Shown here piece after piece: positions 10,063-31,199 of a stretch of 64,000 nucleotides of DNA (position 1 is the first letter of the stretch; every line of letters begins with the position of its first letter). This DNA comes from Candidatus Moanibacter sp. (GTDB taxonomy: Bacteria > Verrucomicrobiota > Verrucomicrobiia > Opitutales > UBA2987): NCBI GenBank assembly GCA_965215885.1, contig CBDCEW010000105.1:320001-384000 (forward strand), given 5' to 3'. The notes under the pieces were generated by a model. That model was not told the origin of the DNA. It searched no databases and worked only from the letters and a program-made list of their open reading frames with translations. Made by a program: the position numbers and the translations under genes.

Positions 10063-10443
10063 CTAGGAATCCGTCGGACTTAGTATTCATGAGGCAGCCT
10101 TCGGCCGCAACCAAACTGTAAGACAGAAGAGGGGACACAGAGCGCCACAGAGAAGCATCACAGAGGCACACAGAGAGGACATGGGTGGACGATGTCCGTG
10201 TGAAGTTACGATTGTGCTTTGCTTCTCTGTGGCGCTCTGTGTGCCCGATTTACTCACGATTTAACCCTTTGTTCGTAGCTTACTTACCTAGCATATCTAC
10301 GCAAATTGCGTAGAAGTTATGGGATAAGACACTGACATCCTCGTGGTGAAGATTTCATGGTAACGGATCGACATTCCGACTCAGATGAGATCGACAGATT
10401 CCTTGTGTCTATGAGCCTGTCGGCAAGGGCTGACAGGCTGCTA
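10063..10443. repeat. Degenerate family A MITE-like ends and short repeats
   Basis: CTAGGAATCCGTCGGACTT at 10063; CGACAGATTCCT near 10392; AGCCTGTCGGC/GCTGACAGGCT hairpin 10414-10439; CACAGAG/CTCTGTG repeats between. Confidence 0.6.
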
Positions 10444-11002
10444 AGCGAAGGCGGCTTCGTGAGCGACGATTCCGGAAATGGCTATGACAAGCCCTACGAG
10501 GAGTCCATAGGCAAGATGAGCAAGGAGATGAGCGACGCCTACTGAGAACCCTGCTTCACGAAACTCCTCGAGAGGATGTTCTTCAGCAATGGCGGCGACA
10601 AGGCCGAAACAGATAAGAATGCCGTGGCAAAATCCAAGGAAAAGACCCACTTGAATAACCCTCTCGGCGGTCATGGGCGCCATAATTTCAAACACCAGGG
10701 TGTAGAGCATCCCGAAAATCACTCCGGAAATGACATGAAGAGTGGAGCCGACGAGGAGGGCGGACTCGGTCGAGCGGGTGAAGAGGCTCCCCACGGCAAA
10801 GACCATTCTGGCGTTCGCGATGCCCGATTTTGTAATAACGTAGAGCAGGAGAGTCATGCCGGCGGTACCGACGAGACCCGCCAGAATGGAATAGACGAGA
10901 AAGGGCAAGACCTGTGGTGAAGAGAGTCATGCCGGCGGTACCGACGAGACCCGCCAGAATGGAATAGACGAGAAAGGGCAAGACCTGTGGTAATTCGACC
11001 AT
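10441..11002 (-). pseudogene. His-containing four-TM membrane protein, 5' end frameshifted by tandem duplication (TTG restart at 10908 possible)
   Basis: Paralog of 31196-31678; ATG at 11002 reads MVELPQVLPFLVYS then leaves frame. Confidence 0.65.
10849..10991. repeat. Perfect 70-bp direct repeat, period 73
   Basis: GAGAGTCATG...CCTGTGGT at 10849-10918 and 10922-10991. Confidence 0.95.
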
Positions 11003-12860: not shown

Positions 12861-13790
12861 ATGACGGAATCATCACAGATAAAATCATATTTCGATCTGG
12901 AAGGGGATGGCGGCTCGCATGTGATGGAGCAGGTCCTGTCCCAGAAGGCCGAGATCGAGAAGAAATTATCCGGTATCAAGGAGATGGTCGCGATAGCCTC
13001 GGGAAAGGGAGGAGTGGGGAAGAGCACACTGAGTATGCAGTTGGCGGTGGCGCTCAATGCGATGGGCAATTCCGTCTGCATCTTAGACGCGGATTTTAAC
13101 GGGCCCTCTCTTGCGCGGCTCTCAGGCCTTGGTGAAACGGCACTGATTCCGGGGGCGGAGGGCCTCATCGTCCCCCGGACAGAAAGCGGGATAGGAGTGC
13201 TCTCGATGGGGACAATCGTGCCGGAAACGAAAGCGGTGGATTTCACGAGCGTGGCCAGTGGTGAATCTCATGTGTGGCGTGCGACAAAGGAATTCTCGAC
13301 CCTGGCGGAATTTCTAAGAGGGACGGATTGGGGCGATTTGGATTTTCTTCTACTCGATTTGCCTCCAGGCGCTGAGCGCTGCTTTCAGTTTGCGGAGTTC
13401 TTTGGGAAGAAAACTCGTTTCCTGATGGTCACGATTCCTTCCGATGTGTCTCAAGGGGTGGTATCGCGATCGGTGGTGGCGGTGGAGAAAGCGGAGTCAA
13501 CGATAATTGGATACGTGGAGAACATGTCCGGCTTTTATTGTGCGGAGACTGGTGAATTGAGGCCGCTCTTCCCAAGGGGTGATCTGAAATTGGATTATCC
13601 TCTTCTGGGGCAGGTGCCTTTTGATCCGGAGTTGGCGCGGAATTGTGACAAAGGACGGACCATTGAAGATATGCCTGGTACTCCCGTGGCGAGTGCAATT
13701 TTTGAAATCGGGCGGGAGATTGTGAGGATTCTCTCACAGGAAGGAACCCCTTCGACGGGGCTCAGGGCAGGAGAGAGAAAAGAGAATTGA
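12861..13790 (+). CDS. Mrp/NBP35 (ApbC-like) P-loop ATPase
   Basis: ASGKGGVGKST, DADFNGPS, DLPPG, VENMS motifs. Confidence 0.9.
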   Translation: MTESSQIKSYFDLEGDGGSHVMEQVLSQKAEIEKKLSGIKEMVAIASGKGGVGKSTLSMQLAVALNAMGNSVCILDADFNGPSLARLSGLGETALIPGAEGLIVPRTESGIGVLSMGTIVPETKAVDFTSVASGESHVWRATKEFSTLAEFLRGTDWGDLDFLLLDLPPGAERCFQFAEFFGKKTRFLMVTIPSDVSQGVVSRSVVAVEKAESTIIGYVENMSGFYCAETGELRPLFPRGDLKLDYPLLGQVPFDPELARNCDKGRTIEDMPGTPVASAIFEIGREIVRILSQEGTPSTGLRAGERKEN

Positions 13791-14195
13791 ATCCCGGCGC
13801 GCCGGGAGAAACATAGAGAACGGAGAGAGATGAAGAGGGAGAGTTACCCATCCCGGTGCGCCGGGACTCCGCAGTACTACGAATTTCCTGGCGCAGCGTC
13901 GCCGCAACCAATCGACAAGCCAGCAGCTGTTTGCTTTCACCGAGGTGCTGTCGATCGTCAGCTTCCCGTTCGGGACAAGGTTCGCGACGAGGTTTGCTCC
14001 GCATAATCCGAAGCAGCCCTGCAGTGAGTGAATCGTCGCGTAAAACGGGATCGTCGAAGTCCTGCCGAACCCATAAACTGTAAAGGAAGTATCTAAGAGT
14101 GCGTGGCTAGATTATGAGTCCAATGAAAACGCTCCCTAATATCTTGAACTCTCTTAAGCAGGCGTTCAGTTTCTTGGGGCTCGGGAAGAGTGGTT

Positions 14196-14714
14196 ATGAT
14201 TTTTCTATGCGTTAGTTGCAACACCCAGATGAAGCTGGTAAAGGGGGACGGGAGCGTCACGCCGGATGAAAGGGGATCCCTTACGCTACGGTATGAATGC
14301 CCAGAGTGCTTAATGGAAGTCGCTATGCTGACCAATCCTTTTGAGACTCAGTTGGTAACTTCGATGGGCGTTGAGATCGGGGGCAAGACGGTTTCTGAGA
14401 CGGATGGAATTCTGATTGATGCGCAAGGTAAGGCAACCGGCGCGAAGAATTCGGAGATCTCTTCCTCGGAGGCTAAGTGTCCGTTTTCGCAAGTGGCGAG
14501 GGATGCGATAGTTGATGGCGCAGAAAGGACCGGCGCGACGAGTGAGGAGTTGATTATTCCCTGGACGGCGCAGGCCATGGTGCGGCTGCAGAACATTCCG
14601 GAGTTTGTGCGGCCCATGGCAAAGCAGGGGATCGAGCAATTCGCCAGGGAGAAGGGGTATCCGCAGGTCAATGAGAAGTGCCTGGACGAAGCCAAAGAGG
14701 AGTTTGGGATGTGA
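14196..14714 (+). CDS. Zn-ribbon + PCP_red-like domain protein
   Basis: CVSC...CPEC; C-terminal WTAQAMVRLQNIPEFVRPMAKQGIEQFAREKG; ATG at 14196. Confidence 0.8.
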   Translation: MIFLCVSCNTQMKLVKGDGSVTPDERGSLTLRYECPECLMEVAMLTNPFETQLVTSMGVEIGGKTVSETDGILIDAQGKATGAKNSEISSSEAKCPFSQVARDAIVDGAERTGATSEELIIPWTAQAMVRLQNIPEFVRPMAKQGIEQFAREKGYPQVNEKCLDEAKEEFGM

Positions 14715-14766
14715 GCCGCCGCCGCCCTACGGGCTGTGGCGAGCCAAGAAGTGGAAGGAAGAGTAG

Positions 14767-16113
14767 GTGGAGTCATTGACCAGATTTGAGAGGCCGTATG
14801 TTATTTCGTGGAATCTGACGCACCGGTGTAATCTGAAGTGTGAGCATTGCTATCTGGATGCCGGGGCTAAGAAGATTCAGAGGCTGAGTAGCGACGGATT
14901 TGAGGACCGCAGCGAGCTGAACACGGAGCATTGCCTGGCGATTGTCGACCAGATCGCGGAATTCGCGCCGGAAGCGCTAACGATTTTGACAGGCGGAGAA
15001 CCGCTCTTACGGCGAGATATCCTCGAAATAATCCGCTATGCGAGCAGAAAAGATCTGTGGGTGGTCTGCGGGACCAACGGGGTCCTGATAACTGAGAATC
15101 TTGCGAATATTCTAGGTGAAGCTGGGTTACGGGGTCTCTCGCTTTCTTTGGACGCTCTTTTGCCGGAGGTTCACGATCGATTCAGAGGCGTTGAGGGGGC
15201 GTGGCGAAACACGGTAAATGGGGCCGCTGTCCTGCGGAAGGCAGGGCTTTCATTCATCGTCCAGACAACCGTCGGCAAGCACAATGTGGGGGAGATCAGC
15301 GCCATTGCCGATTTCGCCTACAAAGAGATGGGTGCCAAGGTATTCAATCTCTACTTTCTCGTGCCAACCGGTCGTGGGCAATTTGTGTCGGATATTGCTC
15401 CCGAAGAATACAATTCAGTGCTGCGGACGCTAGCGCAGATTCAGACGAGGTACGATGGCCAGATGATTACAAATGCGAAGTGCGCGCCGCATTACGTAAG
15501 ACATCTATTTGAAAACGATCCCGATTCGAAATTCCTGAAGTCTTTTGCGGGTGGTGCGGGTGGGTGTCCGGCTGGTGCGCAGTATATGGGAATTCGCCCG
15601 AACGGCGATATGACCCCATGTCCCTACCTGCCACTCTACGGAGGAAATCTGCGGGAGCAAGCTATGGCTGAGATCTGGAACGAATCGGAGCTCTTCATTA
15701 ATATCCGCGCGCGTAGTGCCCTTGGAGGCCGATGCGGAGAGTGTGAATTCAATGGAAAGTGCGGGGGGTGCCGGGCTCGCGCTTTCGGAGTGACGGGTAA
15801 CTATATGGCGGAGGACTCACTCTGCGACTACACGCCGGGAAAATATGAGAGGGAGCAGCTGAATTTTGGTTCGGGTATGGAGTACGGCCTCGCCTATGAG
15901 ATGGATTCGAAGGATGAAATTCATTGGGATGAGAAGGCCCGCGAACGCATGAAAGAAATACCGGCATTCGTTCGTGGAATGGTGAAACGGAGCGTGGAAG
16001 GTTATTGCGCGAAGAACGGGATACTACGAGTGACACCCAAAGTATTGGCGGACATTCGCAGCCGGATGCCGACGCCGAAGATTTTTGGGAAGAAAGAGGA
16101 GAGTAACGGATAG
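14767..16113 (+). CDS. Radical SAM/SPASM protein, AhbD/NirJ-like, with C-terminal PCP_red-like domain
   Basis: WNLTHRCNLKCEHCY, TGGEPL, CAPHY, SPASM cysteines CGECEFNGKCGGCRARA; WDEKARERMKEIPAFVRGMVK. Confidence 0.88.
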   Translation: MESLTRFERPYVISWNLTHRCNLKCEHCYLDAGAKKIQRLSSDGFEDRSELNTEHCLAIVDQIAEFAPEALTILTGGEPLLRRDILEIIRYASRKDLWVVCGTNGVLITENLANILGEAGLRGLSLSLDALLPEVHDRFRGVEGAWRNTVNGAAVLRKAGLSFIVQTTVGKHNVGEISAIADFAYKEMGAKVFNLYFLVPTGRGQFVSDIAPEEYNSVLRTLAQIQTRYDGQMITNAKCAPHYVRHLFENDPDSKFLKSFAGGAGGCPAGAQYMGIRPNGDMTPCPYLPLYGGNLREQAMAEIWNESELFINIRARSALGGRCGECEFNGKCGGCRARAFGVTGNYMAEDSLCDYTPGKYEREQLNFGSGMEYGLAYEMDSKDEIHWDEKARERMKEIPAFVRGMVKRSVEGYCAKNGILRVTPKVLADIRSRMPTPKIFGKKEESNG

Positions 16114-16435
16114 AAGGAAAGAAGATTTCTCACGCAACGGTCTTCGACCCGCGAGCGGGACTTCGCCCTGTCAAGAAGTCGCAAAGACGCAAAGATTTGA
16201 ATGGTGGAAGGGTGGGACGGGAAGGTTGTAGGTTTTTGGTGGTTGGGTGTTCAGAGGTCGGTGTTGGATTTACTGAGCTCCTGAGATTAGAAATTGGTTG
16301 GGTGAAATTGGCGGCAATTCGTTGACAACCTGAGAATTAATTGGATGCTGGCGTCTGATGGAAAACCGTGTTGGGTAATCGTATTTGAGCACTATGGAAT
16401 TCCCAGGCGAAAAGAACAAATAGAAGGCAAGATTT

Positions 16436-18505
16436 ATGTACAAGTCCGTTCTGGTCCCGGTAGATAACTCAGAATATTCCAACCATGCCGTAAAGGTTGG
16501 TATCGAATTTGGAAAACGTTGTGATTCTAGGCTGACCGGTAATCACGTGTATGCCGCAAAGATGCATGATTATCGCTTCAAACAGATGGAGTTTACGCTA
16601 CCGGGGGAATACCTGCAGGAAGACGAACTGGAGCGACAGAGAAAGATCCATGACAGTCTGATCACGATGGGGTTGAAGCTCATTTCCGACTGCTACCTCA
16701 ATGACATGGATAAGCAGTGCAAAGAGGCGGGTGTGAAGATGGAGCGCAAGATGATGGACGGAAAGCATCATGTCGAACTTCTCAGGGACATCGAGGGTTC
16801 GAGCTACGACCTGACAATTCTGGGAATTAAAGGGATCGGGAAAACGAAGGACAGTCAGATCGGAGCAGTGTGCCACCAGATATCGAGCGAGGCCAAAGGT
16901 GATGTCTGGGTGGTAAAACATGTGCCGAAGGAGAATGAAGCGCCGAGGGACACGATTCTGGTCGGGATTGACGGAAGCCCGCAGTCATTTGGCGCTTTGA
17001 TGACGGCTGTCGATCTGGCCAGGAGATTCGAAAAAAAGCTCAGCCTGATTTCTGTATATGATCCCTACCTTCACTATATGGTATTCAATGGCATCGTTGA
17101 TGTGCTGACGGAGAGGGCGGCCAAGGTATTCAGATTCGAGGAACAGAATCAATTGCATGAGGAGATCATCGATACGGGGTTAGCGCAGATATATCAGTCG
17201 CATCTGGAGGTTGCGGCTCAGATGGCTAAGGATGAGGGAGTGGAAACCGACAAGGTGTTGCTTGATGGCAAAGCGTTCCAGAAGATGCTGGATTTTGCGC
17301 GCAAGAATCCACCTTGGGTTCTTGTTATAGGAAAAATCGGGGTGCATAGCGAAAACGGAACTTCTGGACTGGGGAGCAACACGGATAACCTTCTGAGACT
17401 TGCGCCCTGTGATGTTCTTCTGAGTTCGAAACTGGTGCATCCCAAACTCGATTTAAAAGCGGAAGAGAGCATCCAATGGACGCCGGAGGCTGAGGAACGG
17501 ATGGAACGCGTGCCCAAGCTGGTCAAAGGGATAGCGCGGACGGGCATTTTGCGACTTGCGGTTGAACAGGGGCACAGCGTGGTTACGAACTCGCTAATTG
17601 ATGAAGCTGTCGATCGATTTATGCCCAAAAGCGCAGCGAGGGCGACAAAGGACCTGGCGGAAGTCTTGGCGTTTGAAAAGGCGAGCCGAGGAGGCACAGC
17701 AATGTGCAGACACTGCGGCACGACAGCGACGGAAGAAAATCCCGTAAAATGTGCGGTTTGCGGAAATTCAGATTTTGAGCTGATTTCAGCCGAGATGGTT
17801 GACAAGATTGTGGCCTCGGAAGGGGGAAGCGAGGAGGAATCCACTTATGATGGGAAGAGACTCTCCTGGACGCGGGAGGCAAGGCGTCTCTTGCCTGCGA
17901 TAAAGGATAATTATCAAAAACGCCGTGCTAAGGCCTACATCGAAAAGGCTGCCCGCATACGCAAATTGAATACCGTAACTCTGGAATTCGCCGAGAAGTT
18001 CCTTGGGGAGCTTGGCCATGAAGAGAGCGTGAAAAGGCATCGCGAGGAGCGGGCCGATGGCGATTCGGCTGATTTGGAAGAATCGATCCTCGGAAACGGA
18101 ATGAAATTGATCGCTCGAGATAGTCAGAATAACCCGTTGAAGTCTGTCTTTGATTGGACGGAAGAGGCGGCGGAGCGCATTCTTCGGGTTCCTGCCGGAT
18201 TCATGCGCGACAGAGTGCAGAAAAAGGTTGAAGACATGGCCCTCGATGAGCGGATTTTTGAGATTGATCTCACTCTCATCGAGAGAGGAATTGCGGCCGG
18301 CCGGCAGATGATGGAAGAGATGCTGAAAACTGCCGGACTCGACCCGAATTCGGCCGGCAATGGAAATGGAAGGGAGGATGTTTCAGCGGTACCGGAGTAT
18401 ACCAGCACCCAGAGAAACGATTTCCCGCCTAATCATCCACCAAAAGAGATGATGAATGAAGAGGGAATCATGTCGGCGCTGGAGAAGAAGCGTTCAGGAA
18501 TGTGA
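16436..18505 (+). CDS. Tandem universal stress protein domains + three PCP_red-like domains + rubredoxin-like CxxC pair
   Basis: VLVPVDNS, ILVGIDGS, LGSNTDNLLRLAPCDVL; WTPEAEER, WTREARR, WTEEAAER repeats; CRHCG..CAVCG. Confidence 0.85.
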   Translation: MYKSVLVPVDNSEYSNHAVKVGIEFGKRCDSRLTGNHVYAAKMHDYRFKQMEFTLPGEYLQEDELERQRKIHDSLITMGLKLISDCYLNDMDKQCKEAGVKMERKMMDGKHHVELLRDIEGSSYDLTILGIKGIGKTKDSQIGAVCHQISSEAKGDVWVVKHVPKENEAPRDTILVGIDGSPQSFGALMTAVDLARRFEKKLSLISVYDPYLHYMVFNGIVDVLTERAAKVFRFEEQNQLHEEIIDTGLAQIYQSHLEVAAQMAKDEGVETDKVLLDGKAFQKMLDFARKNPPWVLVIGKIGVHSENGTSGLGSNTDNLLRLAPCDVLLSSKLVHPKLDLKAEESIQWTPEAEERMERVPKLVKGIARTGILRLAVEQGHSVVTNSLIDEAVDRFMPKSAARATKDLAEVLAFEKASRGGTAMCRHCGTTATEENPVKCAVCGNSDFELISAEMVDKIVASEGGSEEESTYDGKRLSWTREARRLLPAIKDNYQKRRAKAYIEKAARIRKLNTVTLEFAEKFLGELGHEESVKRHREERADGDSADLEESILGNGMKLIARDSQNNPLKSVFDWTEEAAERILRVPAGFMRDRVQKKVEDMALDERIFEIDLTLIERGIAAGRQMMEEMLKTAGLDPNSAGNGNGREDVSAVPEYTSTQRNDFPPNHPPKEMMNEEGIMSALEKKRSGM

Positions 18506-18646: not shown

Positions 18647-19522
18647 ATGGCCTCTTTTCGATTTTGTCGGCCGGATGATATAGAGGAGTTGGTCGATGCA
18701 GTCAACCGGACCTATCTCGTGCATTTTCCGGGTCTGGCTCCTATGACTGTGGAGACTTTCAAGAGGGAGATAAAGGAACTCAACTTGTGGACCAGCTCGT
18801 GTATGCTGGCGACAGAGGATAGTGGACCAGTAGCAGTGCTGATCGCGGCGAAGCGACGGCGCTCCTCAGTCATACTTCGCTTGGGCGTTCATCCCGGATT
18901 CCAGCGATTAGGATACGGCTCTCATCTATTGGATTCTCTGCAGAGTAAGATGCACGTTTTAGGTCCCCCTTTGCTCACTGTAGAACTTGAGGAAAGGGAC
19001 GCCGAAAATTGCAGATTCTTTGAGAAACAAGGCCACCAGAAATTAGGGAGATTTACAGATTTTGAATTGAAGGGGAAACTCGAGCAGCCGGAACTCACTG
19101 AGCTCATAAGTGAGATATACATAGGAGATTTGGAAGACCGCTACCTGTTAGGGGAGGAGGGTGAGGAATTGGATGTAGACGAGGCGCTACCGTGGATTCG
19201 ACAGACGGAAACACTGCGGAACCGAATGGAAGAAATGAGAGGATTTGGTATACCTGATCTGGATGGAATTGCGGCTTATGTGTTTGCAAGGGACGCCTCT
19301 GAAGAGAACAAACGATTTGTTGATGTTTGTGCTCTCGGTTGCCGCGACGGAGAGAAAACGCCTCTATATATGAGCATCCTTCTTCGGTACGTATCGAAGA
19401 CGTTCGAAATGGGCGTCCGCATCCCCCGCCTTTCGGAGCGAGAGATTCCTTACGAAATCTTGGAAGATCTCGGATTTGAAAAGAGGCGAGAGTATATTCA
19501 GTATGGGATGCGGACGCAGTAG
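18647..19522 (+). CDS. GNAT family N-acetyltransferase
   Basis: LGVHPGFQRLGYGSHLL motif A; RFFEKQG. Confidence 0.8.
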   Translation: MASFRFCRPDDIEELVDAVNRTYLVHFPGLAPMTVETFKREIKELNLWTSSCMLATEDSGPVAVLIAAKRRRSSVILRLGVHPGFQRLGYGSHLLDSLQSKMHVLGPPLLTVELEERDAENCRFFEKQGHQKLGRFTDFELKGKLEQPELTELISEIYIGDLEDRYLLGEEGEELDVDEALPWIRQTETLRNRMEEMRGFGIPDLDGIAAYVFARDASEENKRFVDVCALGCRDGEKTPLYMSILLRYVSKTFEMGVRIPRLSEREIPYEILEDLGFEKRREYIQYGMRTQ

Positions 19523-20018: not shown

Positions 20019-20450
20019 TTGCACAGGTATAGACAAATAGCTCGAGACTGGCTCCTCCCAACGAGCGACGGTCAGTCCTATCATCGCGCTGCTGTGATCT
20101 ATTTCATCTACGGAATGGTGTATATGGGAGGAGCGATTGCGCAGCTTACACCTGAGCGCAAAGTAGACTTCTTCGGAACAGTGCCGTGGTGGACTTTTTA
20201 TATTTTCGGCGCGGTCGTCCTGGTCGGGTTTCCAATTCTGGTTTGGTTCCGCTTCAAATGGTTTACCAGGATAATTGCGTTCGGGCCATCTGCAAAAGCG
20301 ATCACCCTCATCGGCAGGGAAGTGCGATCGTTGATGAAAGGTGAGCCAATGAATCTGTTCTATTGGATCTTCGCTGTCGTTGCGGTTTGGGCCGCGGTGC
20401 ACCTTTTCCGGGCAGGATGGGGTAGGGAAAGGAGGAATGATGAAAGATGA
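20019..20450 (+). CDS. Hypothetical membrane protein
   Basis: Three to four hydrophobic segments; start uncertain. Confidence 0.6.
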   Translation: MHRYRQIARDWLLPTSDGQSYHRAAVIYFIYGMVYMGGAIAQLTPERKVDFFGTVPWWTFYIFGAVVLVGFPILVWFRFKWFTRIIAFGPSAKAITLIGREVRSLMKGEPMNLFYWIFAVVAVWAAVHLFRAGWGRERRNDER

Positions 20451-20561: not shown

Positions 20562-22208
20562 TCAGGCGGATTGGGGGGCGGGTTCCGGCGATCCAGTGTA
20601 TTTCCTGCGCACGAAAAAGATGATGAGGATTTCGGCGAGAAGGGTCAGGAATCCGTAGGTCAACATTGGCCCAATGGGAGATTGGGTATCGGCGGGAGTG
20701 AGGTAGATGCTGTACCAGGGAGTTATCCCCGTTCGAACGCCTGTTTCGCGGTTAAATCCATCCCAAACGAAAAAGGAGAGGGGCAGGAACTCGCCCTCGA
20801 CAAACGGTATTGCATCAGTCTGGTCCCGCCTTTGCTTGAAAATGACGGACCATTCACCGTTTTCGTATTTCGAGGAAACCAAAACACCGTTTGACTCGCT
20901 TGCGATGAGATTCTGAAAACCGTTTCCGGTATACTGCTTTACGGTCTCTCCCTGAGCGAGGTCGACGAACCATACGTTCACAGCATTCTTCGCGTCCCCA
21001 AAAAGAAAATACGGTTTCTTGAACCCCTCCGGCATCTTTTGCGGCCACTGAATCGCGATGGCATCGGAAAATTGCGGGTTCTCCTGGTCTTCTTCACTGA
21101 TTACACGGGACGTCTGGTGCAAGTCTTCCTCCCCCAGTGAAGCATCGGGTGCATTTTCTCCGGTTGTGTCAGCGGTCATATCGTGCCATGTTACAAGGAT
21201 GGCGAATTCCTCGGCGTTGTAGACGGCCTGCACTTCGATCGCGTTAGTCGATGGCGCGAGCAAGCGGCCCGGTTCAATAACCTGGCCAACGACCGGGAAA
21301 TGAGAAATGGTGGCGTTCGCGAACAATTCCTTTCCCCGCGCGGGATCTAAGTCGCCCTCGACAGGTTCAGCGACGAGCGTCGTTGAGAAATCAGTCTCAT
21401 CACGCTCCGAAAGGGAATAGATATAATTTACGAGGTCCCAACGCTCATTTTCGGGGATCGAGTCCTGGTAAGAGGGCATTGGGGTGCCGTTAAGCCCCGT
21501 TGTGAAGGTGCGATAGATGTCTTTGCGAGTGGGGCCGCCACGGAAGGACCATCGTTTTGTGAGGTCGGCGGGGCGGATATGGTACTTTTCCGGGCCGAAA
21601 TCATCCTCGAGTGTAGGCGCGGAAACTCCATCCGACCTGCCCTGATCTCCGTGACAGGTATAGCACTCATTCTTTACATAGAGGTCACGGCCGCGAGTTG
21701 CGGATTCTTCGGAGTACTTTGGAGCTTTCTCGAAATCGATTGGAACAGGCACGAAATCCGGGTCCTCGAAGTCTTCGTTAAACGTCTTCAGGTAGTAGAC
21801 AAGATTGGTAATCTCTTCATCGTTGAAGTTGGAAAACGCCGGCATGGCGCTGAATGGCATGCCGACACGGATGATATGCTTAATATCTCCCGTAGTGGGC
21901 AACTCTCCGCTCGGTGTGGTACGTACTTTGTACTTGCCGCTAGTGAAATCTCTCGGCTTCGGCGCGAAATGGAGGAAGGCGCTTCCCTTCCCGTCACCGT
22001 TGTCGCCATGGCAGTGGGCGCAAAAATCCTGGTAGAGTTCCTTCCCGGCATTTATCTGCGCTTCGGTTCCCAAATCTGTCCCCTGTGAGTGAAGGAGCGG
22101 TGATAAAAAGAGCCAGAAGGCAATCAATCCAAGATAGTAGCGAAAAGACGGTGGCGTGATTAGGTAGCCACTGCTTACTGAATATTGCCTTTGTCCGGGA
22201 GCAATCAT
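20562..22208 (-). CDS. Diheme cytochrome c with ethylbenzene-dehydrogenase-gamma-like heme domain and C-terminal TM anchor
   Basis: CAHCH and CYTCH; PRDFTSGKYK; FSDAIAIQWP..KPYFLFG..FFVWDG; ATG overlaps the upstream stop at 22208. Confidence 0.85.
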   Translation of the reverse strand: MIAPGQRQYSVSSGYLITPPSFRYYLGLIAFWLFLSPLLHSQGTDLGTEAQINAGKELYQDFCAHCHGDNGDGKGSAFLHFAPKPRDFTSGKYKVRTTPSGELPTTGDIKHIIRVGMPFSAMPAFSNFNDEEITNLVYYLKTFNEDFEDPDFVPVPIDFEKAPKYSEESATRGRDLYVKNECYTCHGDQGRSDGVSAPTLEDDFGPEKYHIRPADLTKRWSFRGGPTRKDIYRTFTTGLNGTPMPSYQDSIPENERWDLVNYIYSLSERDETDFSTTLVAEPVEGDLDPARGKELFANATISHFPVVGQVIEPGRLLAPSTNAIEVQAVYNAEEFAILVTWHDMTADTTGENAPDASLGEEDLHQTSRVISEEDQENPQFSDAIAIQWPQKMPEGFKKPYFLFGDAKNAVNVWFVDLAQGETVKQYTGNGFQNLIASESNGVLVSSKYENGEWSVIFKQRRDQTDAIPFVEGEFLPLSFFVWDGFNRETGVRTGITPWYSIYLTPADTQSPIGPMLTYGFLTLLAEILIIFFVRRKYTGSPEPAPQSA

Positions 22209-23044
22209 CAGTGTGCGAGTTCCATGTCGGCACGGGGTATGGTGTTGGTGAATCGATAAACAAACATCGTAACATCCCAAATTTCCTTTTCGGTGAGAAA
22301 TTTCTCCCAGGTCGGCATGGCGGAACTCCAGGGACCCGACTCGTCAGGGAGACCCGGTCCCCCTTTTGCGATTCGCCAGAATACGTAATTTTCCTGTAGT
22401 TGGGCGATGGTGCCGGAGTCGGCCAGATTGGCCGGAATGGGGTTAAACCCATGAGCAAAGAGACCGTTCCCTTCGAGCGTATCACCGTGACAGAAAACAC
22501 AGTTGTCATAGTAGACTTTACGCCCGTTTTGGACGTGCTTCATGAATTCGTCCGGATTCTCGACTTCCAGTTTTCGATACGGATTCTCGAAATCCGCGAG
22601 TTGGATTTGCTTCCCATCAAACGTAAACTGGGTGGGTGGAGCGGGGTGAATGGAGCGACCGAACACGGGCGCAACAATCTCAACCTGCATTCCGGCATAG
22701 ACTCTCCAGGCGACGAAGAGGGGAAGGAGAATAGTGACCAGGGTAAGTGGAATTCTAAACTTTCTGTTTACGATAAACTGGGTCAGAGAACCCGTAACTT
22801 CCTTCAGAATTCCTGTATCTGAGGAGATGAAAAAGAGCAGGGCAATTGTGATGATTGCCATGAACATCTGGACGATAGAGGCTGGGAGAGGCGGGATGAT
22901 TGAGAATCTTAAGATAACGAATAGTCCAATCCACCATGCCACGATCCAGAAGAGAACATTCATCCAAAATGGGCTTCGGGTCTTTCCATAAATGGAGAGG
23001 GCGACCATCACGCCTACAACACTGGCGAGGATAATGAGATTCAT
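22208..23044 (-). CDS. Membrane-anchored monoheme cytochrome c
   Basis: Four N-terminal TMs; CVFCH; PWSSAMP axial Met. Confidence 0.88.
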   Translation of the reverse strand: MNLIILASVVGVMVALSIYGKTRSPFWMNVLFWIVAWWIGLFVILRFSIIPPLPASIVQMFMAIITIALLFFISSDTGILKEVTGSLTQFIVNRKFRIPLTLVTILLPLFVAWRVYAGMQVEIVAPVFGRSIHPAPPTQFTFDGKQIQLADFENPYRKLEVENPDEFMKHVQNGRKVYYDNCVFCHGDTLEGNGLFAHGFNPIPANLADSGTIAQLQENYVFWRIAKGGPGLPDESGPWSSAMPTWEKFLTEKEIWDVTMFVYRFTNTIPRADMELAH

Positions 23045-23890
23045 TTATTCACCTGTCCTGGAAGCTAGAAAATCAACGATTGATTTAAGCTGTGCCGGTG
23101 TGATCTGTTCGTAAAAGCCGGTACCGTTCAATGTCGCAATCATAAGGCCCGGTTGATAGCCTTCGGTGAGGAAGGCATCGGGTTCGATGATGGATTCGTA
23201 AATCTCGCCTTTAGTCCGATTCGTTCCAATATCGTAGAGGCTGGGACCGAGCATCTTTACAGGAGCTGTATAGTTATGGCAAGCGATGCAGGCGTATTTT
23301 GTCATCAACTCTTCCGGTCCGAGATCCGCTGCCACCATCTCCGCGGGTGAATCCACTGCCTGTCCCGGTTCAGCGGCAACCACTTCGCCATCTCCTGCAG
23401 ATTCAGTTTCGTCACCACCGGCGAAATACTTGAGCATGGTATCGGGAGTCACCGTAGGGGTGCCGCCCAAGCTCTGCAGGTAAGCAATAACTGCGAGAAT
23501 CTCCGGTTCGGTAAGGTTGATCGGCGCCTTATTGACGGGTGTCATGATCGGATTGAATCCTTCCACGACATAGACGAGGGGTTCGAAGAGAGATTCGGCG
23601 AGGTAATCAATATCGTTGTATCCCTCCCGGCGGGTCGAGGCCCGCTGCCCGATTCCGGCGAGATCAGGCGCCCTGTTTCCGGGAGATCCGATTGTATGGC
23701 AGAGAGTACAGGTGCCTTTGGCGGATGCGATCTCCTGCCCCGCGGCGACCATATCATCCACGCTCATGTCGGCGCGAATTTCCGTGCTCTCGGGGGGGTG
23801 TGTCTCCTTCTGGGGAACCTGCTGCCCTACATACCAGTAGAAGAGGGTCGTGAAAATGGTGAGGAGGACGATTTTCAGAAGATTCGTCAT
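23045..23890 (-). CDS. Membrane-anchored diheme cytochrome c
   Basis: N-terminal TM; CTLCH and CIACH; YLAESLFEP. Confidence 0.88.
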   Translation of the reverse strand: MTNLLKIVLLTIFTTLFYWYVGQQVPQKETHPPESTEIRADMSVDDMVAAGQEIASAKGTCTLCHTIGSPGNRAPDLAGIGQRASTRREGYNDIDYLAESLFEPLVYVVEGFNPIMTPVNKAPINLTEPEILAVIAYLQSLGGTPTVTPDTMLKYFAGGDETESAGDGEVVAAEPGQAVDSPAEMVAADLGPEELMTKYACIACHNYTAPVKMLGPSLYDIGTNRTKGEIYESIIEPDAFLTEGYQPGLMIATLNGTGFYEQITPAQLKSIVDFLASRTGE

Positions 23891-25767
23891 GCTCTTTCGT
23901 CCACCGGTTTCCTGGGCTCCCAGTTCCTTCGGTTGTGGAGATCCGCCAGCCAGAAGTTCACAATAATGAATCCAAAAAATATGAGGACGACAATCGAGAC
24001 GACGGTGCTGGCGAAACCGAGCGTGGGCGTGAATGCATCCGCGGAGGTATCCTGCATGACTTCATAGACATGCCAGTGCAGGCGCAGGCCGGAGCGGACG
24101 TAGCCCATCAGCCCCATCAGCCAGGTAAAAGTGACAGCCAGGAAGAAGAGCGTGTACTGGGCGCGGTTGGAGATTTTCCCCCACCTGATTTTGCCAAACT
24201 CAGGCGCGTTCCGAAATATGACAATGTCAAGCGCGGTTGCCAGAATAAGCACCATGAGGACAGATGATACCTGAAGGACGGAGAAGCCGATGCGTATGGT
24301 TGCTTCGACAAAGTACCCGTAGATTCCGTAAAAAATAACGATACCGGACGAAAGGACAAATAGGAGCGCCTGTCCCCAGACACCGCGGCTCTGAAATGCA
24401 AGCACAAGTGCCGCGGTGATACCGATCGCTTCGATCAATATCAGCATCCAGGGATTGCGAAACAGGATTAGAAGGAGGAGAGTCAGAAGAGCTGTCAGAA
24501 GAAGCGCAATTTTAGAAGTAGTGGACTGTTGAGCCATCGGGAGGGGCTTGCCCTTATTGCCGCGGCGATACAACAGGAAACTGAGATAGGTGGTGAGGAT
24601 GAGAATGTTTACGGCGGTGTTCTTTGCCGACATGACCCCGAGGATACCGAGAACGGGGTGATGCGCGCCGCCCATCTGCCGCTGTTCCTGAACACTGGCA
24701 ACAAGCGAATGCGGGGTTGCCCATACGATGAAACAGATCGTGACGAGGCCGAGAAGATATTTTATGTATTTCCTATAGCGCTCGGCGCCTTCGATCCGTT
24801 CCATTCCAAGCCAAAGGTAGTAATTCGCGCCGAGGAAGAGCATGCCGATAAGGACGGCTTGGATGATAAATAACCAGGAGAATGCTCCGCCCATTAGAAC
24901 CATGCCCAATTGAGCGCGAAAGGCGTAAATCTCGCTACCCAGCCAGTAACCCGCAAAAGGGAGGGGAAGGAGGGCGCAGATGGCGATGAAATTTCCAACG
25001 TAACCCATCCAGTCGTAGTGAGCCCGCTCTTCGTCAGTAGTCGCACTGAGAAACTTGAAACCGCCATAAGCCGCGGCGATGGAACCGCCGAGGCAGAGGT
25101 TTGCGATGAGCCGGTGGATGTTGATAGGCATCCAGGTATAGTTGTTGACCGCGTCCCAGGTGCTGACGAGGTTTCCGGCCTCATCGATCCCGCTGGGTGA
25201 CATCATAAAGGAGAGCCAGGCGTTGGCGATAAACATAATAAGGGTACCCACGATATTAAGGCAGATACCGAGGAATAGATGCATACGCGGCGAGAACTTT
25301 CCCCAACCGTAATAGTAGCTGTAGAGAAAGACGGCTTCCCCGAAAAAGAGCAGACCGTATGGCCAAAAGGTGACGCTGAAAATTGATACGAGGTAGTTGG
25401 TGAACCTGGGGTAGAGGATCATCAACATGAAGGTGAGGAGGGCGCCCAGGGTGGCGGTAAAAGAAAAAGATACGGTGAGCAGGCCGGTAAACTCGTGGGC
25501 AAGTTTATCGTAACGTTTGTCGCCCGTCTTGTAACCGATGAACTCGATGAGAAGGGCAAACATGGGAACAGCCAGGACGAAGGCCGCATACATGAGGTGG
25601 AGTTCTCCTACGACCCAGATCGCGACACGACTTCCGATCTTGGGAAAGTCGCGGTATTCAGCATCAACTCCTGCTTCTGCCTGGGCCCAGAGACGGGTTG
25701 CACCCATTAGGAGGACGAGGAGAAGGAGCGAAAATCCAAGGAGCTTGCGATGCCGATTCAGTTTCAG
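23887..25767 (-). CDS. Cytochrome bd-like oxidase subunit I homolog (CydA-like, Nitrospira-type)
   Basis: ELHLMYAAFVLAVP, RYDKLAHEF, ANAWLSFMMSP, INIHRLIAN, MGYVRSGLR; first ATG at 25707 but frame is open to CTG 25767. Confidence 0.8.
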   Translation of the reverse strand: MKLNRHRKLLGFSLLLLVLLMGATRLWAQAEAGVDAEYRDFPKIGSRVAIWVVGELHLMYAAFVLAVPMFALLIEFIGYKTGDKRYDKLAHEFTGLLTVSFSFTATLGALLTFMLMILYPRFTNYLVSIFSVTFWPYGLLFFGEAVFLYSYYYGWGKFSPRMHLFLGICLNIVGTLIMFIANAWLSFMMSPSGIDEAGNLVSTWDAVNNYTWMPINIHRLIANLCLGGSIAAAYGGFKFLSATTDEERAHYDWMGYVGNFIAICALLPLPFAGYWLGSEIYAFRAQLGMVLMGGAFSWLFIIQAVLIGMLFLGANYYLWLGMERIEGAERYRKYIKYLLGLVTICFIVWATPHSLVASVQEQRQMGGAHHPVLGILGVMSAKNTAVNILILTTYLSFLLYRRGNKGKPLPMAQQSTTSKIALLLTALLTLLLLILFRNPWMLILIEAIGITAALVLAFQSRGVWGQALLFVLSSGIVIFYGIYGYFVEATIRIGFSVLQVSSVLMVLILATALDIVIFRNAPEFGKIRWGKISNRAQYTLFFLAVTFTWLMGLMGYVRSGLRLHWHVYEVMQDTSADAFTPTLGFASTVVSIVVLIFFGFIIVNFWLADLHNRRNWEPRKPVDERA

Positions 25768-25996: not shown

Positions 25997-26788
25997 CTAC
26001 CAGACATCCTCTTCAGCGGTAGCCTGGGCCTTTGCCACTTCCGCAGCCATCCAATCGTCGAAGCTGTCCTGTGACATGACTTCGATAAAGCCGCGCATCG
26101 CGGAATGCCCGTTACCGCAGAGTTGGCTGCAGGCAATAAGATACTTTCCTTCCACGACCGGCTTAAAAGTAACGGGAATGCTGACACCTGGAATAGCGTC
26201 CTGTTTTACTCGCATGACGGGTATTCCGAAACTGTGAATCACATCTTTCGAACTCAGGTGTACCACAACCGGCTTGTCTACCGGGAGATTCAGTCTCTTT
26301 GCTGTGACATCGTCCTTGGCATTGGGATCGTTGGTATCGAGACCGAGGATATTAGTCTCAAGATCGATTAGTTCCGGCTTTGTGTTTCCAAAAACACCGT
26401 CGGGACCCGGATAGTGGTAACTCCATGTAAACTGTTCGGCCACGACGCGAACGACGACAGAATCTTCCGCGGCTGGGAAATCCTCAGTCCATTGGGCCCA
26501 GAGGGGAATCGAAAACCCGCCGAGGAGGATAATCTCCGCGACGATTACTACGACCTCAGTAATAGATCCGATCTTGGATTTGGTCCCTTCATAATCCGCT
26601 TTGGGATTACGTGACTGCCGAAAGCGCACCAGGACGTAGATGAAATACGCAGTCCAAGCTATAAAGAGAAAGAGCATCAGCCAATGGACGATCAGGTTTA
26701 GCTGGTCTAATGCGGCTCCGTGCTCGGAAACGTCAATGGGCAACCAGGGAAACCCAAAGAAATCTTTCATCGGTTGTTCCATAATCAA
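25997..26788 (-). CDS. coxB: Cytochrome c oxidase subunit II
   Basis: Two TMs, EQFTW, DVIHSF, DAIPG, CuA motif CSQLCGNGHSAM. Confidence 0.95.
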   Translation of the reverse strand: MIMEQPMKDFFGFPWLPIDVSEHGAALDQLNLIVHWLMLFLFIAWTAYFIYVLVRFRQSRNPKADYEGTKSKIGSITEVVVIVAEIILLGGFSIPLWAQWTEDFPAAEDSVVVRVVAEQFTWSYHYPGPDGVFGNTKPELIDLETNILGLDTNDPNAKDDVTAKRLNLPVDKPVVVHLSSKDVIHSFGIPVMRVKQDAIPGVSIPVTFKPVVEGKYLIACSQLCGNGHSAMRGFIEVMSQDSFDDWMAAEVAKAQATAEEDVW

Positions 26789-27066
26789 TCTCCGCCCGTG
26801 TTTGTATTACTTTGAAAGTGATCACCAAGAGATTGGTGAAGGTGATAAGCCTTGGAGCGTCTCCAAAGGTAGATAAAGAATGCCGCGAATCCCCCCAATA
26901 CGGAAGTCGTGACGCCGAGAAGAAGAACCAACGCCAAATTCAATCCTTGGGCGAGATCACCATTTACTTTTCCAAAACAGACGGTGCAAGCTGAGAGGGA
27001 GTTCGTCGCCGACAACAGGACTGCGAACAGAATGAAAATCGGCAGAAGTGGAGAGGTATGCTTCAT
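26785..27066 (-). CDS. Small exported/membrane protein with ACxxC motif
   Basis: Signal peptide, ACTVCFG, one TM; in the cox operon. Confidence 0.65.
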   Translation of the reverse strand: MKHTSPLLPIFILFAVLLSATNSLSACTVCFGKVNGDLAQGLNLALVLLLGVTTSVLGGFAAFFIYLWRRSKAYHLHQSLGDHFQSNTNTGGD

Positions 27067-27071
27067 CGTAT

Positions 27072-27260
27072 TCACAGATTCTGCATCTTGTTGAGAAAGT
27101 AATTGCCGTAGAAAAAGAGGGCGATACCGGCGGCAAACGACGACATGCCGACTAGCAGGTAGGGCCCTGATTGCCGAACGGACCACCATCCGAATCCGAA
27201 GCAGAGGATGATGGAAATCGTAATGAAACAGATATGGAAGATCTTCAGCGACACGGCCAA
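27072..27260 (-). CDS. Small two-TM protein in cox operon
   Basis: SLKIFHICFI; fills the gap between neighbours. Confidence 0.65.
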   Translation of the reverse strand: MAVSLKIFHICFITISIILCFGFGWWSVRQSGPYLLVGMSSFAAGIALFFYGNYFLNKMQNL

Positions 27261-27265
27261 TATCC

Positions 27266-27583
27266 CTAGTGCCGGACTTCAACTCTCAGTGTGGTAATGT
27301 CCTGATCCGTTGCGATGGGCAGAACCATTAGGACGAAAAAGAATATCACAGTTAGCGAGAGCGACCAGAAAATGAGTTTCTTTTCCGATATGAGGTGCAT
27401 GAAAAAGGAGACCACCATCGAACCTTTTACCAATGCGATACTGAGGGCGATGCTGATGGTTGCCGGCACTGAGAGGTCGAGATAGGAGACTGCGACGGTG
27501 ATCAGTGTGAGGGCCAGGAGAGCAACGAATATTCCGATACAGGTCCGGACGTGCTGATCCAGTTCTTCAAGGTTTTCTGCCAT
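27266..27583 (-). CDS. Cytochrome c oxidase subunit IV family
   Basis: FVALLALTLITV..IALVKGSMVVSFFMHL; ATG at 27583. Confidence 0.88.
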   Translation of the reverse strand: MAENLEELDQHVRTCIGIFVALLALTLITVAVSYLDLSVPATISIALSIALVKGSMVVSFFMHLISEKKLIFWSLSLTVIFFFVLMVLPIATDQDITTLRVEVRH

Positions 27584-27600
27584 TTTTACAATACTCCCTT

Positions 27601-28206
27601 TTACATGAGATAGAGAACAGGGAAGAGAAAAATCCACACAAGATCGACGAGATGCCAGAAGAGGCCGGCGCACTCGACCCGGCCCGTGAAGCGCACCGGT
27701 TCAGTCTTCCACATTTTGGAACCGGGCCAATGCAGGTAAGCGAGCGTGCACATGCCGCTGAAGACATGAAGGCCATGTAATCCGGTAATGGTAAAGTAGA
27801 TTGCGAGGAAGGTGCTGCTGGAAGGATAGAGATGGTGATCGAATTTCGCGCTGTATTCGAAGTATTTTACAATGAGGAAGATGAGGCCGCAGGCCAACGT
27901 CGCGTAGTTATAGAGGCGATATTTGTTGAATTCTCCTCTAACCAGCGAAGCCCACGCCAGGACCATCGTGATACTGGAAGTGATCAGAACCACAGTGTTG
28001 ACTGTGGCGAGAGGGACGTTCAGAATGCTTGAACCCACCGGCCAGACTTCGGCACCGACTCGGAGAAGGACGTAGGAAGAAAAGAGTCCGCCAAAGAGCA
28101 TTACTTCGGAGGCGAGAAAGAGCCAGATGCCGAGCTTGGCATTGGTGAGGCCGGTATCCGGCCTCGGCGTATCAACATAGGGTATAACAATGGCAGACAT
28201 ACTCAC
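27601..28206 (-). CDS. coxC: Cytochrome c oxidase subunit III
   Basis: WLFLASEVMLFGGLF, TGLHGLHV, FWHLVDLVWIFLF. Confidence 0.95.
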   Translation of the reverse strand: MSMSAIVIPYVDTPRPDTGLTNAKLGIWLFLASEVMLFGGLFSSYVLLRVGAEVWPVGSSILNVPLATVNTVVLITSSITMVLAWASLVRGEFNKYRLYNYATLACGLIFLIVKYFEYSAKFDHHLYPSSSTFLAIYFTITGLHGLHVFSGMCTLAYLHWPGSKMWKTEPVRFTGRVECAGLFWHLVDLVWIFLFPVLYLM

Positions 28207-30018
28207 TCACTCCTGGGCTTTTTGTGGCTTTGAATCCTTTTCAAACTGTGGGCTGAAATCGCGAGAGGCGCCGGGAACGCTGTATTCGTAGGGGCCGTGA
28301 TATGCGGCGACCGGGGTTTCAAAGTTGCCGTGGCCGGGAGGAGAGGGGGCGGCCCATTCGAGGGTGGTGGCCTGCCACGGATTTCGGTCGACCGATTTTC
28401 CTTTTCTGATGCTCCAGATCAGGTTAAAGACGAAAACGATTTGAAAGAGACCCAGAAGCCAGGCGGAGTGAGACATCACCTTGTTCAGATGGAGCAGATT
28501 CGCGGCATGTGAATAGAAACCAGGGTCCAGCACCGCGGCCTGATCGGCATAGGCGGCCCCACCGTCATAGAGCCTGCGATTGATACCTGCCAGACCCTGG
28601 ATCATCATGGGAAAGAAGACGAGGTTCATGCAGACGAGGGAACCGAAGAAGTGCACTTTACCCAGCATTTCGTTCATTTGGCGTCCGGTTATCTTCGGGA
28701 ACCAATGGTAAATTCCCGCAAAGAGGGCAAAGAGCGTCCCAGGAGCTACGACGTAATGAAAATGTCCAATAACGTAATAGGTATCGTGAAGATGGATGTC
28801 GGCGGCACTGAGGCCGAGAGGCAATCCCGTCAATCCGCCAATACCGAACATGGGGAGGAAACCGAGGGCAAAGAGCATGGGCGTATTAAAACGGATGGAG
28901 CCGCCCCACAGGGTAATAAAGAGGCAGGAGAGGATGATCACGGAAGGTATGGAAATGATCATCGTGGTGATTTGGAAAAAGGCATTCATTGTTGTTCCCA
29001 TCCCGGTAATAAACATGTGGTGCGCCCACACGCCGAAAGACATGAAGCCTAGAAAGATGAGCGAGAATACGATCGACTTGTAGCCCCAGAGCGGCTTGCG
29101 CGTATTGGCCGTAAGAACCTCCGTGACAATGGCGAAACCCGGCAAGATCAGGACATAGACTTCCGGATGCGCCAGGAACCAGAAGAGGTGCTGCCAGAGG
29201 ATGGGACTGCCTCCCCCGCTGATCTCGGCGACCTCGCCGCTCACAACGAGTCCGGTGGGAAGGAAGAAACTGGTGTCGGCCAATCGATCCATCAACATGA
29301 GAACGGCGGCTGCTTCGAGCGGAGGAAAGGCGAGGAGGAGCAGGAAGGAGGTCACAAACATTCCCCAGACGAAAAAGGGCAGGCGCATAAATGTCATGCC
29401 GTCAGCGCGCAGTTGAATGGTGGTAACGATGAAATTGATGGCGCTTAAGAGCGACGAGGTAATCAGAAAGACCATACCGAAAAGCCAGTAGGTCTGACCG
29501 TGACCGGCGTCGATATCGGCGAGTGGCGGATAGGAGGTCCACCCCGATTTGGCGGCGCCTTCGGGAAGGAAAAAGCTCGCAACCATGATAACACTGCCGA
29601 CGAAAAGGCACCAGTAGCTGGCGGCGTTAATCTTGGGAAAGGCCATATCGACGGCGCCGATCTGCAGGGGGAGGACGTAGTTGGCGAATGCCCCCACAGC
29701 CAGGGGGACGACTCCCATAAAGACCATGATGGTTCCGTGCATGGCGCCCAATGTGTTGTAATTATCGGGAGTGATGGCGCCGCCTGAATCTCCAAAGAGA
29801 AATCCGAGAAACGGCACCGCCTGGTCTGGATAGGCCATGCTCCAACGCATGAGCATCATGAGGCAGAACCCGAAGAGGAGAAAGGATCCCCCGGTTATGC
29901 CGTACTGCAGGCCGATCATCTTGTGATCGGTGGCGAAGATGTATTTTCGCCAGAAGGCCAGCTCGTAATGGTGTTCGGCTTCGGTCGCTTCGGTAGTGGT
30001 GACGGTATCTTCAGACAT
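28207..30018 (-). CDS. coxA: Heme-copper oxidase subunit I, A-family-like
   Basis: DHKMIG, MHGTIM, DMAFPKIN, HPEVY, WAHHM, HDTY, HFHY, RR. Confidence 0.96.
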   Translation of the reverse strand: MSEDTVTTTEATEAEHHYELAFWRKYIFATDHKMIGLQYGITGGSFLLFGFCLMMLMRWSMAYPDQAVPFLGFLFGDSGGAITPDNYNTLGAMHGTIMVFMGVVPLAVGAFANYVLPLQIGAVDMAFPKINAASYWCLFVGSVIMVASFFLPEGAAKSGWTSYPPLADIDAGHGQTYWLFGMVFLITSSLLSAINFIVTTIQLRADGMTFMRLPFFVWGMFVTSFLLLLAFPPLEAAAVLMLMDRLADTSFFLPTGLVVSGEVAEISGGGSPILWQHLFWFLAHPEVYVLILPGFAIVTEVLTANTRKPLWGYKSIVFSLIFLGFMSFGVWAHHMFITGMGTTMNAFFQITTMIISIPSVIILSCLFITLWGGSIRFNTPMLFALGFLPMFGIGGLTGLPLGLSAADIHLHDTYYVIGHFHYVVAPGTLFALFAGIYHWFPKITGRQMNEMLGKVHFFGSLVCMNLVFFPMMIQGLAGINRRLYDGGAAYADQAAVLDPGFYSHAANLLHLNKVMSHSAWLLGLFQIVFVFNLIWSIRKGKSVDRNPWQATTLEWAAPSPPGHGNFETPVAAYHGPYEYSVPGASRDFSPQFEKDSKPQKAQE

Positions 30019-30127
30019 TTATGCGATGGAGCGTTTAAGGCAGACAGTTGATTAAATCTCCTTGTGGAGCAGCAAGATTAGAGAGCATCTGAATTTCGGG
30101 AATTTGGCTATGTTCCTGAAATGGGAG

Positions 30128-31125: not shown

Positions 31126-31199
31126 CTGGCAACCTGTCGGACTTTGCCGACAGGTTACTAGCAGGAATCTGACGGACCATAAGTCCGATAGATTCCTAG
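31126..31199. repeat. Two adjacent family A TIR-only hairpins
   Basis: AACCTGTCGG..CCGACAGGTT-ACTAG then GGAATCTGACGGAC..GTCCGATAGATTCCTAG. Confidence 0.75.

Follow-up and report, generated by a model that had tools for sequence, protein, structure and literature searches.

A conserved gene module with PCP_red domains on three proteins, found with a cytochrome bd-like oxidase cluster in Candidatus Moanibacter and other bacteria

Why should the PCP_red domain, which is the C-terminus of subunit B of the dark-operative protochlorophyllide oxidoreductase (DPOR), recur on three proteins of a genome in which no DPOR genes were detected? The question is raised by positions 12861-18505 of the stretch of DNA analysed here, which is referred to as the window (64,000 nucleotides of Candidatus Moanibacter sp., contig CBDCEW010000105.1 of assembly GCA_965215885.1, positions 320,001 to 384,000). 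In this span four plus-strand genes encode an Mrp-type ATPase, a 174-aa protein, a radical S-adenosylmethionine (SAM)/SPASM enzyme and a 689-aa protein with tandem universal stress protein (USP) domains. These four genes and a GNAT acetyltransferase gene are a conserved unit, and we consider it an even bet (a probability of about 0.5) that the unit is a cytoplasmic module dedicated to the tailoring of haem and its hand-over to the neighbouring cytochrome bd-like complex of the OR-N type. The component families are all known, and their combination is, as far as we searched, undescribed: no account of a PCP_red/radical SAM/USP module was found in the literature, subscription papers being outside the search.

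The PCP_red domains and the five-gene unit

The PCP_red profile PF08369 (cut-off 32.5 bits) is passed by three whole proteins, namely the small protein (54.7 bits), the radical SAM enzyme (46.1 bits) and the USP protein (69.5 bits). Five copies can be placed, all on the plus strand: one in the small protein (14562-14696, 54.7 bits), one in the radical SAM enzyme (15925-16053, 46.1 bits) and three in the USP protein, of which the first is clear (17477-17608, 44.3 bits), the second is divergent and below the cut-off (17867 to about 17995, 19.8 bits, E 8e-4) and the third lies at it (18155-18283, 32.1 bits against 32.5). The five domains on three genes claimed by a sequence-only reading, which a model had made from the letters of the window and without database searches, are real, with three copies over the cut-off, one at it and one divergent. 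A search of the whole genome with PF08369 returned four matches, all of them in the module, the divergent copy falling under the threshold of that search. Moreover, the AlphaFold2 (AF2) model of the small protein superposes on the nuclear magnetic resonance structures of PCP_red, 2KRU and 2L09, with root-mean-square deviations of 1.0 and 2.0 Å, respectively, over about 52 residues (Foldseek E 7e-3 and 4e-3).

The domain therefore has the same sequence profile and three-helix fold as the C-terminal PCP_red of the DPOR subunit BchB/ChlB. Unlike in DPOR it is fused to three unrelated proteins. The core of BchN/B (PF00148) gave no match over the cut-off in a search of the genome, which is 90.3% complete, in agreement with the earlier observation that bch/chl genes are absent. 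The closest named homologue is that of Candidatus Moanabacter tarae, in which the USP protein is annotated as DPOR subunit B (P0004), a mis-annotation that a helper role of the module would correct. From the recurrence of PCP_red on partner proteins we infer that it may act as a shared docking surface of the module proteins. A 258-aa Nitrospirota cluster of PCP_red/rubredoxin proteins was also met as an atlas match (score 0.81) and is given here as a lead only.

At least 564 relatives were met when species genomes were scanned, and the counts of distant loci given below refer to the best 80 of them, mostly from Acidobacteriota. The GNAT gene is present in 74 of these loci, Mrp in 49, the small protein in 47 and the radical SAM enzyme in 39, while coxB was found in 33 and a CusF-SCO gene in one. 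Where the locus leaves room for such a gene, GNAT is found in 57 of 58 cases and CusF-SCO in 1 of 58; because of these counts GNAT (18647-19522, plus strand; PF13508, 30.6 bits) is regarded as a member of the module and SCO as a non-member. The sequence-only reading had closed the module before the GNAT gene; its identification of CusF-SCO was correct, but the inclusion of that gene in the module was not, although in each of the five near relatives it is found next to the module. The conserved unit thus consists of Mrp, the zinc-ribbon/PCP_red protein, the PCP_red-tailed radical SAM enzyme, the tandem-USP/PCP_red protein and GNAT.

The commonest gene order is bd-like, cytochrome c, cytochrome c, cytochrome c/b, USP, GNAT, Mrp, small protein and radical SAM. 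Elsewhere the module mostly follows the oxidase genes in the same direction, and the facing layout that had been described, which is correct for the window, is a local rearrangement. In each of the 45 loci that have room for it, the small PCP_red protein comes directly after Mrp (a strict gap rule gives 38 of these, the gene listing the other 7). The USP protein was found in 5 of 40 near genomes, and all five keep the entire block with its order unchanged. When a locus lacks some members the rest can sit farther off; five genomes checked as a whole contain all three PCP_red proteins, at most about 25 kb apart. The minimal locus (L104) is composed of a short USP-PCP_red gene and a radical SAM-PCP_red gene alone, placed behind the oxidase genes.

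The bd-like complex as presumed client

The presumed client is encoded on the minus strand of the window. Cytochrome bd-like subunit I (23887-25707) matches PF01654 with 87.4 bits in its N-terminal part only and has at least 12 predicted membrane helices; by gene context, this partial match and the helix count it is assigned to the OR-N type, a family defined in 10.1101/2021.01.16.426971. Seven of its histidines are near-invariant; a copper-type His-His pair was considered for the subunit and ruled out, the first histidine of the pair being present in 1 of 62 sequences. Two genes for membrane-anchored c-type cytochromes (22208-23044 and 23045-23890, minus strand) have counterparts in 72 and 68 of the 80 loci, and a gene for a dihaem cytochrome c fused to an EB_dh haem-b domain, which resembles alt-NxrC (20562-22280, minus strand), has its counterpart upstream of the USP gene and on the same strand in 77 of 80. 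Of the 68 loci that extend far enough upstream, 67 have the bd-like gene itself, in every case on the strand of the module.

Co-occurrence across genomes points in the same direction. In a sample of 151 Acidobacteriota genomes, made up of a centre genome, selected because it carries the module, and 150 drawn evenly, the USP core was found in eight, and a close bd-like subunit (E<1e-140) in the same eight; four other genomes gave weak bd-like matches only. The eight best radical SAM matches come from these same eight genomes, and PCP_red is found in them plus one. In the near genomes, that of the window included, the USP protein and a close bd-like subunit occur in the same 6 of 41. Overall they share the same 14 of 192 genomes, in both directions, in a set of related and partly incomplete genomes whose counts are not independent.

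The set of bd-like subunit, two c-type cytochromes and dihaem-c/haem-b protein is the same as that of the Nitrospira bd-like_3/alt_NxrC_2 cluster, which equals TO_1 of Candidatus Manganitrophus. The likeness to the Nitrospira cluster is judged by gene content and order, and the available text deals with the membrane complex and leaves the helper genes out. According to that text, the bd-like/alt-NxrC complex of Nitrospira moscoviensis ranks among the top 40 genes by transcription, and its bd-like_3/alt_NxrC_2 cluster is conserved in Nitrospina and anammox bacteria, with its role left unresolved (PMC6606698). TO_1 is described as the most expressed terminal-oxidase candidate of the manganese oxidiser (10.1101/2021.11.15.468770). 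In addition, the accessible part of a proteome study of Nitrospira marina lists three PCP_red proteins, which are taken here as putative orthologues of the window genes; one has an identifier two away from that of bd-like_2 in the bd-like_3 cluster, and one an identifier consecutive to that of a ParA/Mrp-type ATPase (PMC8115632). Induction by low oxygen was considered for these three proteins and rejected, their levels in that part of the study being the same in air and in low oxygen (PMC8115632; the same limit on orthology applies).

The radical SAM enzyme and the candidate haem-binding residues

The radical SAM/SPASM enzyme (14767-16113, plus strand) belongs to a PCP_red-tailed clade related to AhbD and NirJ2. 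Its best families are TIGR04545 (AhbD, 297 bits) and TIGR04055 (NirJ2, 294 bits), both under the cut-off of 500, and NirJ (TIGR04051) follows with 155 bits against a cut-off of 515. The radical SAM and SPASM cysteines are shared with AhbD, NirJ2 and NirJ, the CxxxCxxC motif and seven SPASM cysteines being invariant in 32 of 32 rows, and the motifs FxLVPxGRG and CAPxY are common to the module enzyme and AhbD/NirJ2. AhbD is described as a decarboxylase and NirJ as removing the propionates of rings A and B (PMC7242693, as far as its available text goes). Unlike AhbD and NirJ2, the module enzyme has a PCP_red tail and a clade of its own, and is found outside hem operons, with no AhbA/B in any of the 14 module genomes.

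For the phylogeny, 143 core domains without the tail were used (320 columns, FastTree, midpoint root), taken from sequences with at least 300 aligned core residues in a sample enriched for near relatives of the query. All 44 PCP_red-tailed enzymes and five untailed or cut ones form one clade (support 0.998), apart from AhbD, AhbAB fusions, TIGR04053 and NirJ2. As a control, AhbD-like enzymes of module-less genomes were placed: their nine loci lie in another clade and lack the tail, and eight of the nine stand beside hemE, hemH or hemY, against a hem gene in only 1 of 90 module-region loci. Another haem-finishing enzyme is present in 12 of the 14 module genomes, HemF in seven, HemN in one more and a full-length ChdC-family match in four more, and an O2-independent HemN is present in two of the 12. 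The genome of the window contains hemE, hemF, hemY and hemH, while ChdC and HemN gave nothing over the cut-off in it. Because of the separate tailed clade, the lack of AhbA/B, the other haem-finishing enzymes and the hem-operon control, the radical SAM enzyme looks dedicated, rather than a plain housekeeping AhbD. A low-oxygen bypass from coprohaem by this enzyme is possible.

PCP_red copies per radical SAM enzyme reach four, and six enzymes (P0124, P0125, P0132, P0139, P0141 and P0156) combine two to four copies with an extra conserved helical tail segment. More divergent PCP_red-tailed copies (39-47%) were seen in four loci (L034, L035, L055 and L111), placed upstream of USP in L034 and L035 and beside a second aa3 operon in L111. 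A hemY gene lies inside the cluster of one genome (G032, L019 12291-13658), and in another (G041, C30:3160431) the radical SAM gene has a second ChdC-family gene at a distance of about 10 kb.

The small protein (14190-14714, plus strand, with a likely ATG start at 14196) is composed of an N-terminal CxxC..CxxC zinc ribbon, a variable linker and the C-terminal PCP_red. Its AF2 model has two confident domains with a low-confidence linker between them; structure matches of the N-terminal domain to zinc ribbons are weak (E above 0.4). The linker varies in both length and sequence and still contains Cys-Pro in 43 of 43 aligned rows (42 CPF and one CPV); in a 34-row alignment C, P and F are invariant while the flanking positions cannot be aligned. 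We regard this Cys-Pro-Phe (14478-14486, plus strand) as a candidate CP-type haem-regulatory motif. As in proteins such as Irr, the motif lies in a flexible loop; unlike there, its carriers are a zinc-ribbon/PCP_red protein and the tail of a USP protein, and haem binding is putative. In the available text of two reports, Cys-Pro is the first recognised and classic transient haem-binding motif, CP motifs act as regulatory sites of micromolar haem affinity (PMC11442138), and transfer of haem from CP to His was observed in peptides (PMC10377097). Fusions of the small protein were also sought in longer proteins, and 0 of 703 candidates scored, a weak negative since known PCP_red-bearing partners were missed too.

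The USP protein (16436-18505, plus strand) is composed of two USP domains, each with a His-bearing helical insert, followed by PCP_red, a CxxC..CxxC knuckle, two further PCP_red copies and a flexible tail. Four histidines (His44, His72, His213 and His241; 16565-17158, plus strand) form two symmetric pairs 28 residues apart, which occupy equivalent places in the two domains. None of the four varies among 120 homologues, and a distant short form with 36% identity has them too. Conservation within the protein is highest in the inserts (87% and 92%, against 53-77% in the USP cores). In the tail, a cysteine is followed by proline in 34 of 34 cases among the 120 homologues and in 7 of 7 among 73 locus proteins, against a background of 8% proline in the tails and of 0-14% Cys-Pro in four neighbour families; this tail motif is optional, occurring in 32 of the 120. 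The CP and His residues of the two proteins are candidates for haem binding, and of the two products proposed earlier, a haem or an Fe-S cofactor, these signatures add weight to haem and not to Fe-S.

PF00582 matches the USP protein twice. ATP-binding USPs carry the motif G-2x-G-9x-G(S/T), and here G130, G133, G143 and G299, G302, G313 are invariant in 120 of 120 homologues, with spacings of 9 and 10, so that both the USP fold and the ATP-site glycines are present. The AF2 model (predicted local distance difference test score, pLDDT, 74.8; predicted template-modelling score, pTM, 0.56) resembles the tandem USPs TTHA0350 and Rv2623, which also have two USP domains per chain (TM-score up to 0.81 on target) but lack the insert of about 50 residues per domain, the three PCP_red copies and the Cys4 knuckle. 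A short paralogue (L109, 6163-7164), which is a tandem USP whose PCP_red tail is degenerate, lacks both His inserts and was observed near an SCO gene.

The Mrp/ApbC/NBP35-type ATPase (12861-13790, plus strand) matches PF10609 with 184.8 bits and has an intact deviant Walker A motif, SGKGGVGKST, which is invariant among its orthologues. A C-terminal CxxC is the defining cluster-ligand pair of the Mrp/ApbC Fe-S carriers. It is present in 47 of 47 distant orthologues, which are like those carriers in this pair, in PF10609 and in the Walker A; unlike them, the module protein stays below the NCBIfam cut-offs for MrpORP and ApbC, and in the lineage of the window the pair has become CxxT/S. In the Mrp of the window it reads CxxT, and the second cysteine is likewise gone in four of five near relatives, those whose motif matched. 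The family of Mrp would suggest that it loads Fe-S clusters into the radical SAM enzyme, a role that is less well supported in this lineage. The two Usp domains, the knuckle, the Radical_SAM and SPASM domains and the Mrp/NUBPL ATPase had all been recognised in the sequence-only reading and were confirmed.

Weighing the possible functions

If the module does tailor haem for the bd-like complex, we would picture its work as follows. Mrp would load the Fe-S clusters of the radical SAM enzyme, which would act on a propionate side chain of haem or coprohaem; the Cys-Pro arm of the small protein may hold the product transiently, until it passes to the histidines of the USP inserts and from there, in a nucleotide-controlled step, to the membrane subunit. 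The PCP_red bundles would offer a common docking surface, and GNAT could tune the module. A bolder form, which we regard as rather unlikely, holds that OR-N complexes use an undescribed haem made by the PCP_red-tailed enzyme, as haem d1 depends on NirJ, and that the Cys-Pro-to-His relay, an ATP-gated haem chaperone in the USP protein and PCP_red as a general docking tag of tetrapyrrole enzymes all belong to it.

Several observations weigh against tailoring and hand-over of haem to the bd-like complex. The radical SAM enzyme stays below both equivalog cut-offs, so that several substrates and products are conceivable; two module genomes have only partial ChdC-family matches, and the presumed cluster ligand is lost from Mrp in the lineage of the window. 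The conservation of CP and His is equally compatible with other metals or with haem sensing. One genome (G163) has PCP_red without the module, the minimal locus keeps USP-PCP_red and radical SAM-PCP_red yet lacks Mrp, the small protein and GNAT, and in one locus with room (L049) USP-GNAT has no bd-like gene within 10 kb upstream, where other cytochrome-like genes are found. An aa3-type oxidase operon, which in the window lies directly upstream of the bd-like gene (25997-30940, minus strand), has a counterpart, recognised by a coxB match, no farther than 10 kb from USP in 33 of the 80 distant loci and could be a second client. The dependence among the sampled genomes lessens the force of the counts as well.

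Four other explanations have to be considered. The module might mainly sense haem, nucleotide or redox state and so regulate or protect the bd-like complex, with the radical SAM enzyme as one input rather than the supplier. The USP fold with its ATP-site motifs, the constancy of GNAT as a neighbour, the optional CP of the USP tail and the fact that CP motifs are reported as regulatory sites (PMC11442138, available text) would suit such a role; even so we think it unlikely, as neither a kinase nor a DNA-binding domain came up in the domain scan of the members, the radical SAM enzyme keeps every cluster cysteine and is present in 8 of 8 Acidobacteriota module genomes, and the N. marina proteins, with the limit on orthology given above, do not respond to oxygen. 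Nor do we find it probable that the radical SAM enzyme is an O2-independent coprohaem decarboxylase with AhbD activity which feeds the general haem b pool, its linkage to the oxidase reflecting a shared demand. AhbD and NirJ2 are its nearest families, HemE, HemY and HemH are encoded in the genome, and hemY and a second ChdC gene occur within or near the cluster in two other genomes; against this, 12 of the 14 module genomes already own HemF, HemN or ChdC, two of them with an O2-independent HemN, the hem-operon type of AhbD is a different and untailed clade, hem genes are nearly absent around the module, and USP, Mrp, GNAT and the CP protein would be left unexplained.

We also think it improbable that the radical SAM enzyme has a protein as its target, be it a module member or the bd-like subunit, or that the oxidase receives a non-haem metal, for example copper or iron, by way of the USP histidines. 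Maturation of peptides or proteins is the task of many SPASM enzymes and PqqE is the best solved relative, the bd-like subunit has its near-invariant histidines, and CusF-SCO adjoins the module in the near relatives; but the scores of peptide maturases are less than half of those of AhbD/NirJ2, the tree nests the tailed clade among haem enzymes, SCO is all but missing from the distant loci and the CP motifs point to haem. The sequence-only reading had further likened Mrp to the L protein of DPOR, which would dock on PCP_red and pass electrons or Fe-S clusters in an ATP-driven cycle. The strict succession of Mrp and the small protein and the consecutive identifiers in N. marina (PMC8115632, available text) are what such a pair would give. 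The comparison nevertheless fails and we hold it to be very improbable, given that Mrp scores 19.1 bits against the BchL family TIGR01281 (cut-off 345), that no N/B core partner exceeds its cut-off, that the second cysteine is gone in the lineage of the window and that the Mrp-less minimal locus retains two PCP_red proteins.

The haem-tailoring reading would, if true, tell which genes to co-express for an active bd-like enzyme and predict a tailored haem in that complex. A large USP family (4,839 matches), and PCP_red outside photosynthesis, would then gain their first assigned roles, and a workable route would be opened to a complex of central importance in nitrite oxidisers. The earlier interpretation is partly supported: the segments do match PF08369, the module and the bd-like gene do co-occur and the radical SAM enzyme is not a housekeeping AhbD, these being the three points on which it had offered to be refuted.

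Among the neighbouring genes, that at 20019-20450 encodes a 143-aa membrane protein with no Pfam family; it was considered as a further module member and ruled out, being found in three of five near relatives and in 0 of 80 distant loci. Two membrane genes that are alike (10441-10908, DUF6789, and 31196-31735) bracket the whole respiratory block, and a transposase-like reading frame was recognised by eye at 34284-35453. Three metatranscriptome runs, all of one study, yielded contigs that cover the module, and a control stretch is covered about as patchily (26/17/23 against 26/17/17 of 30 bins with depth), so that this coverage is no demonstration of transcription of the module. Compared with contigs of the runs, positions 60552-61183 contain eleven small indels, which may reflect another strain or assembly errors in the window. 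Finally, a palindrome resembling repetitive extragenic palindromic elements, TCCCGG(C/T)GCGCCGGGA, occurs five times in the window (11280, 13792, 13851, 19720 and 53353) and in 50 copies on 38 contigs, and two of the copies lie inside the 400-bp gap between the Mrp gene and the small PCP_red gene.

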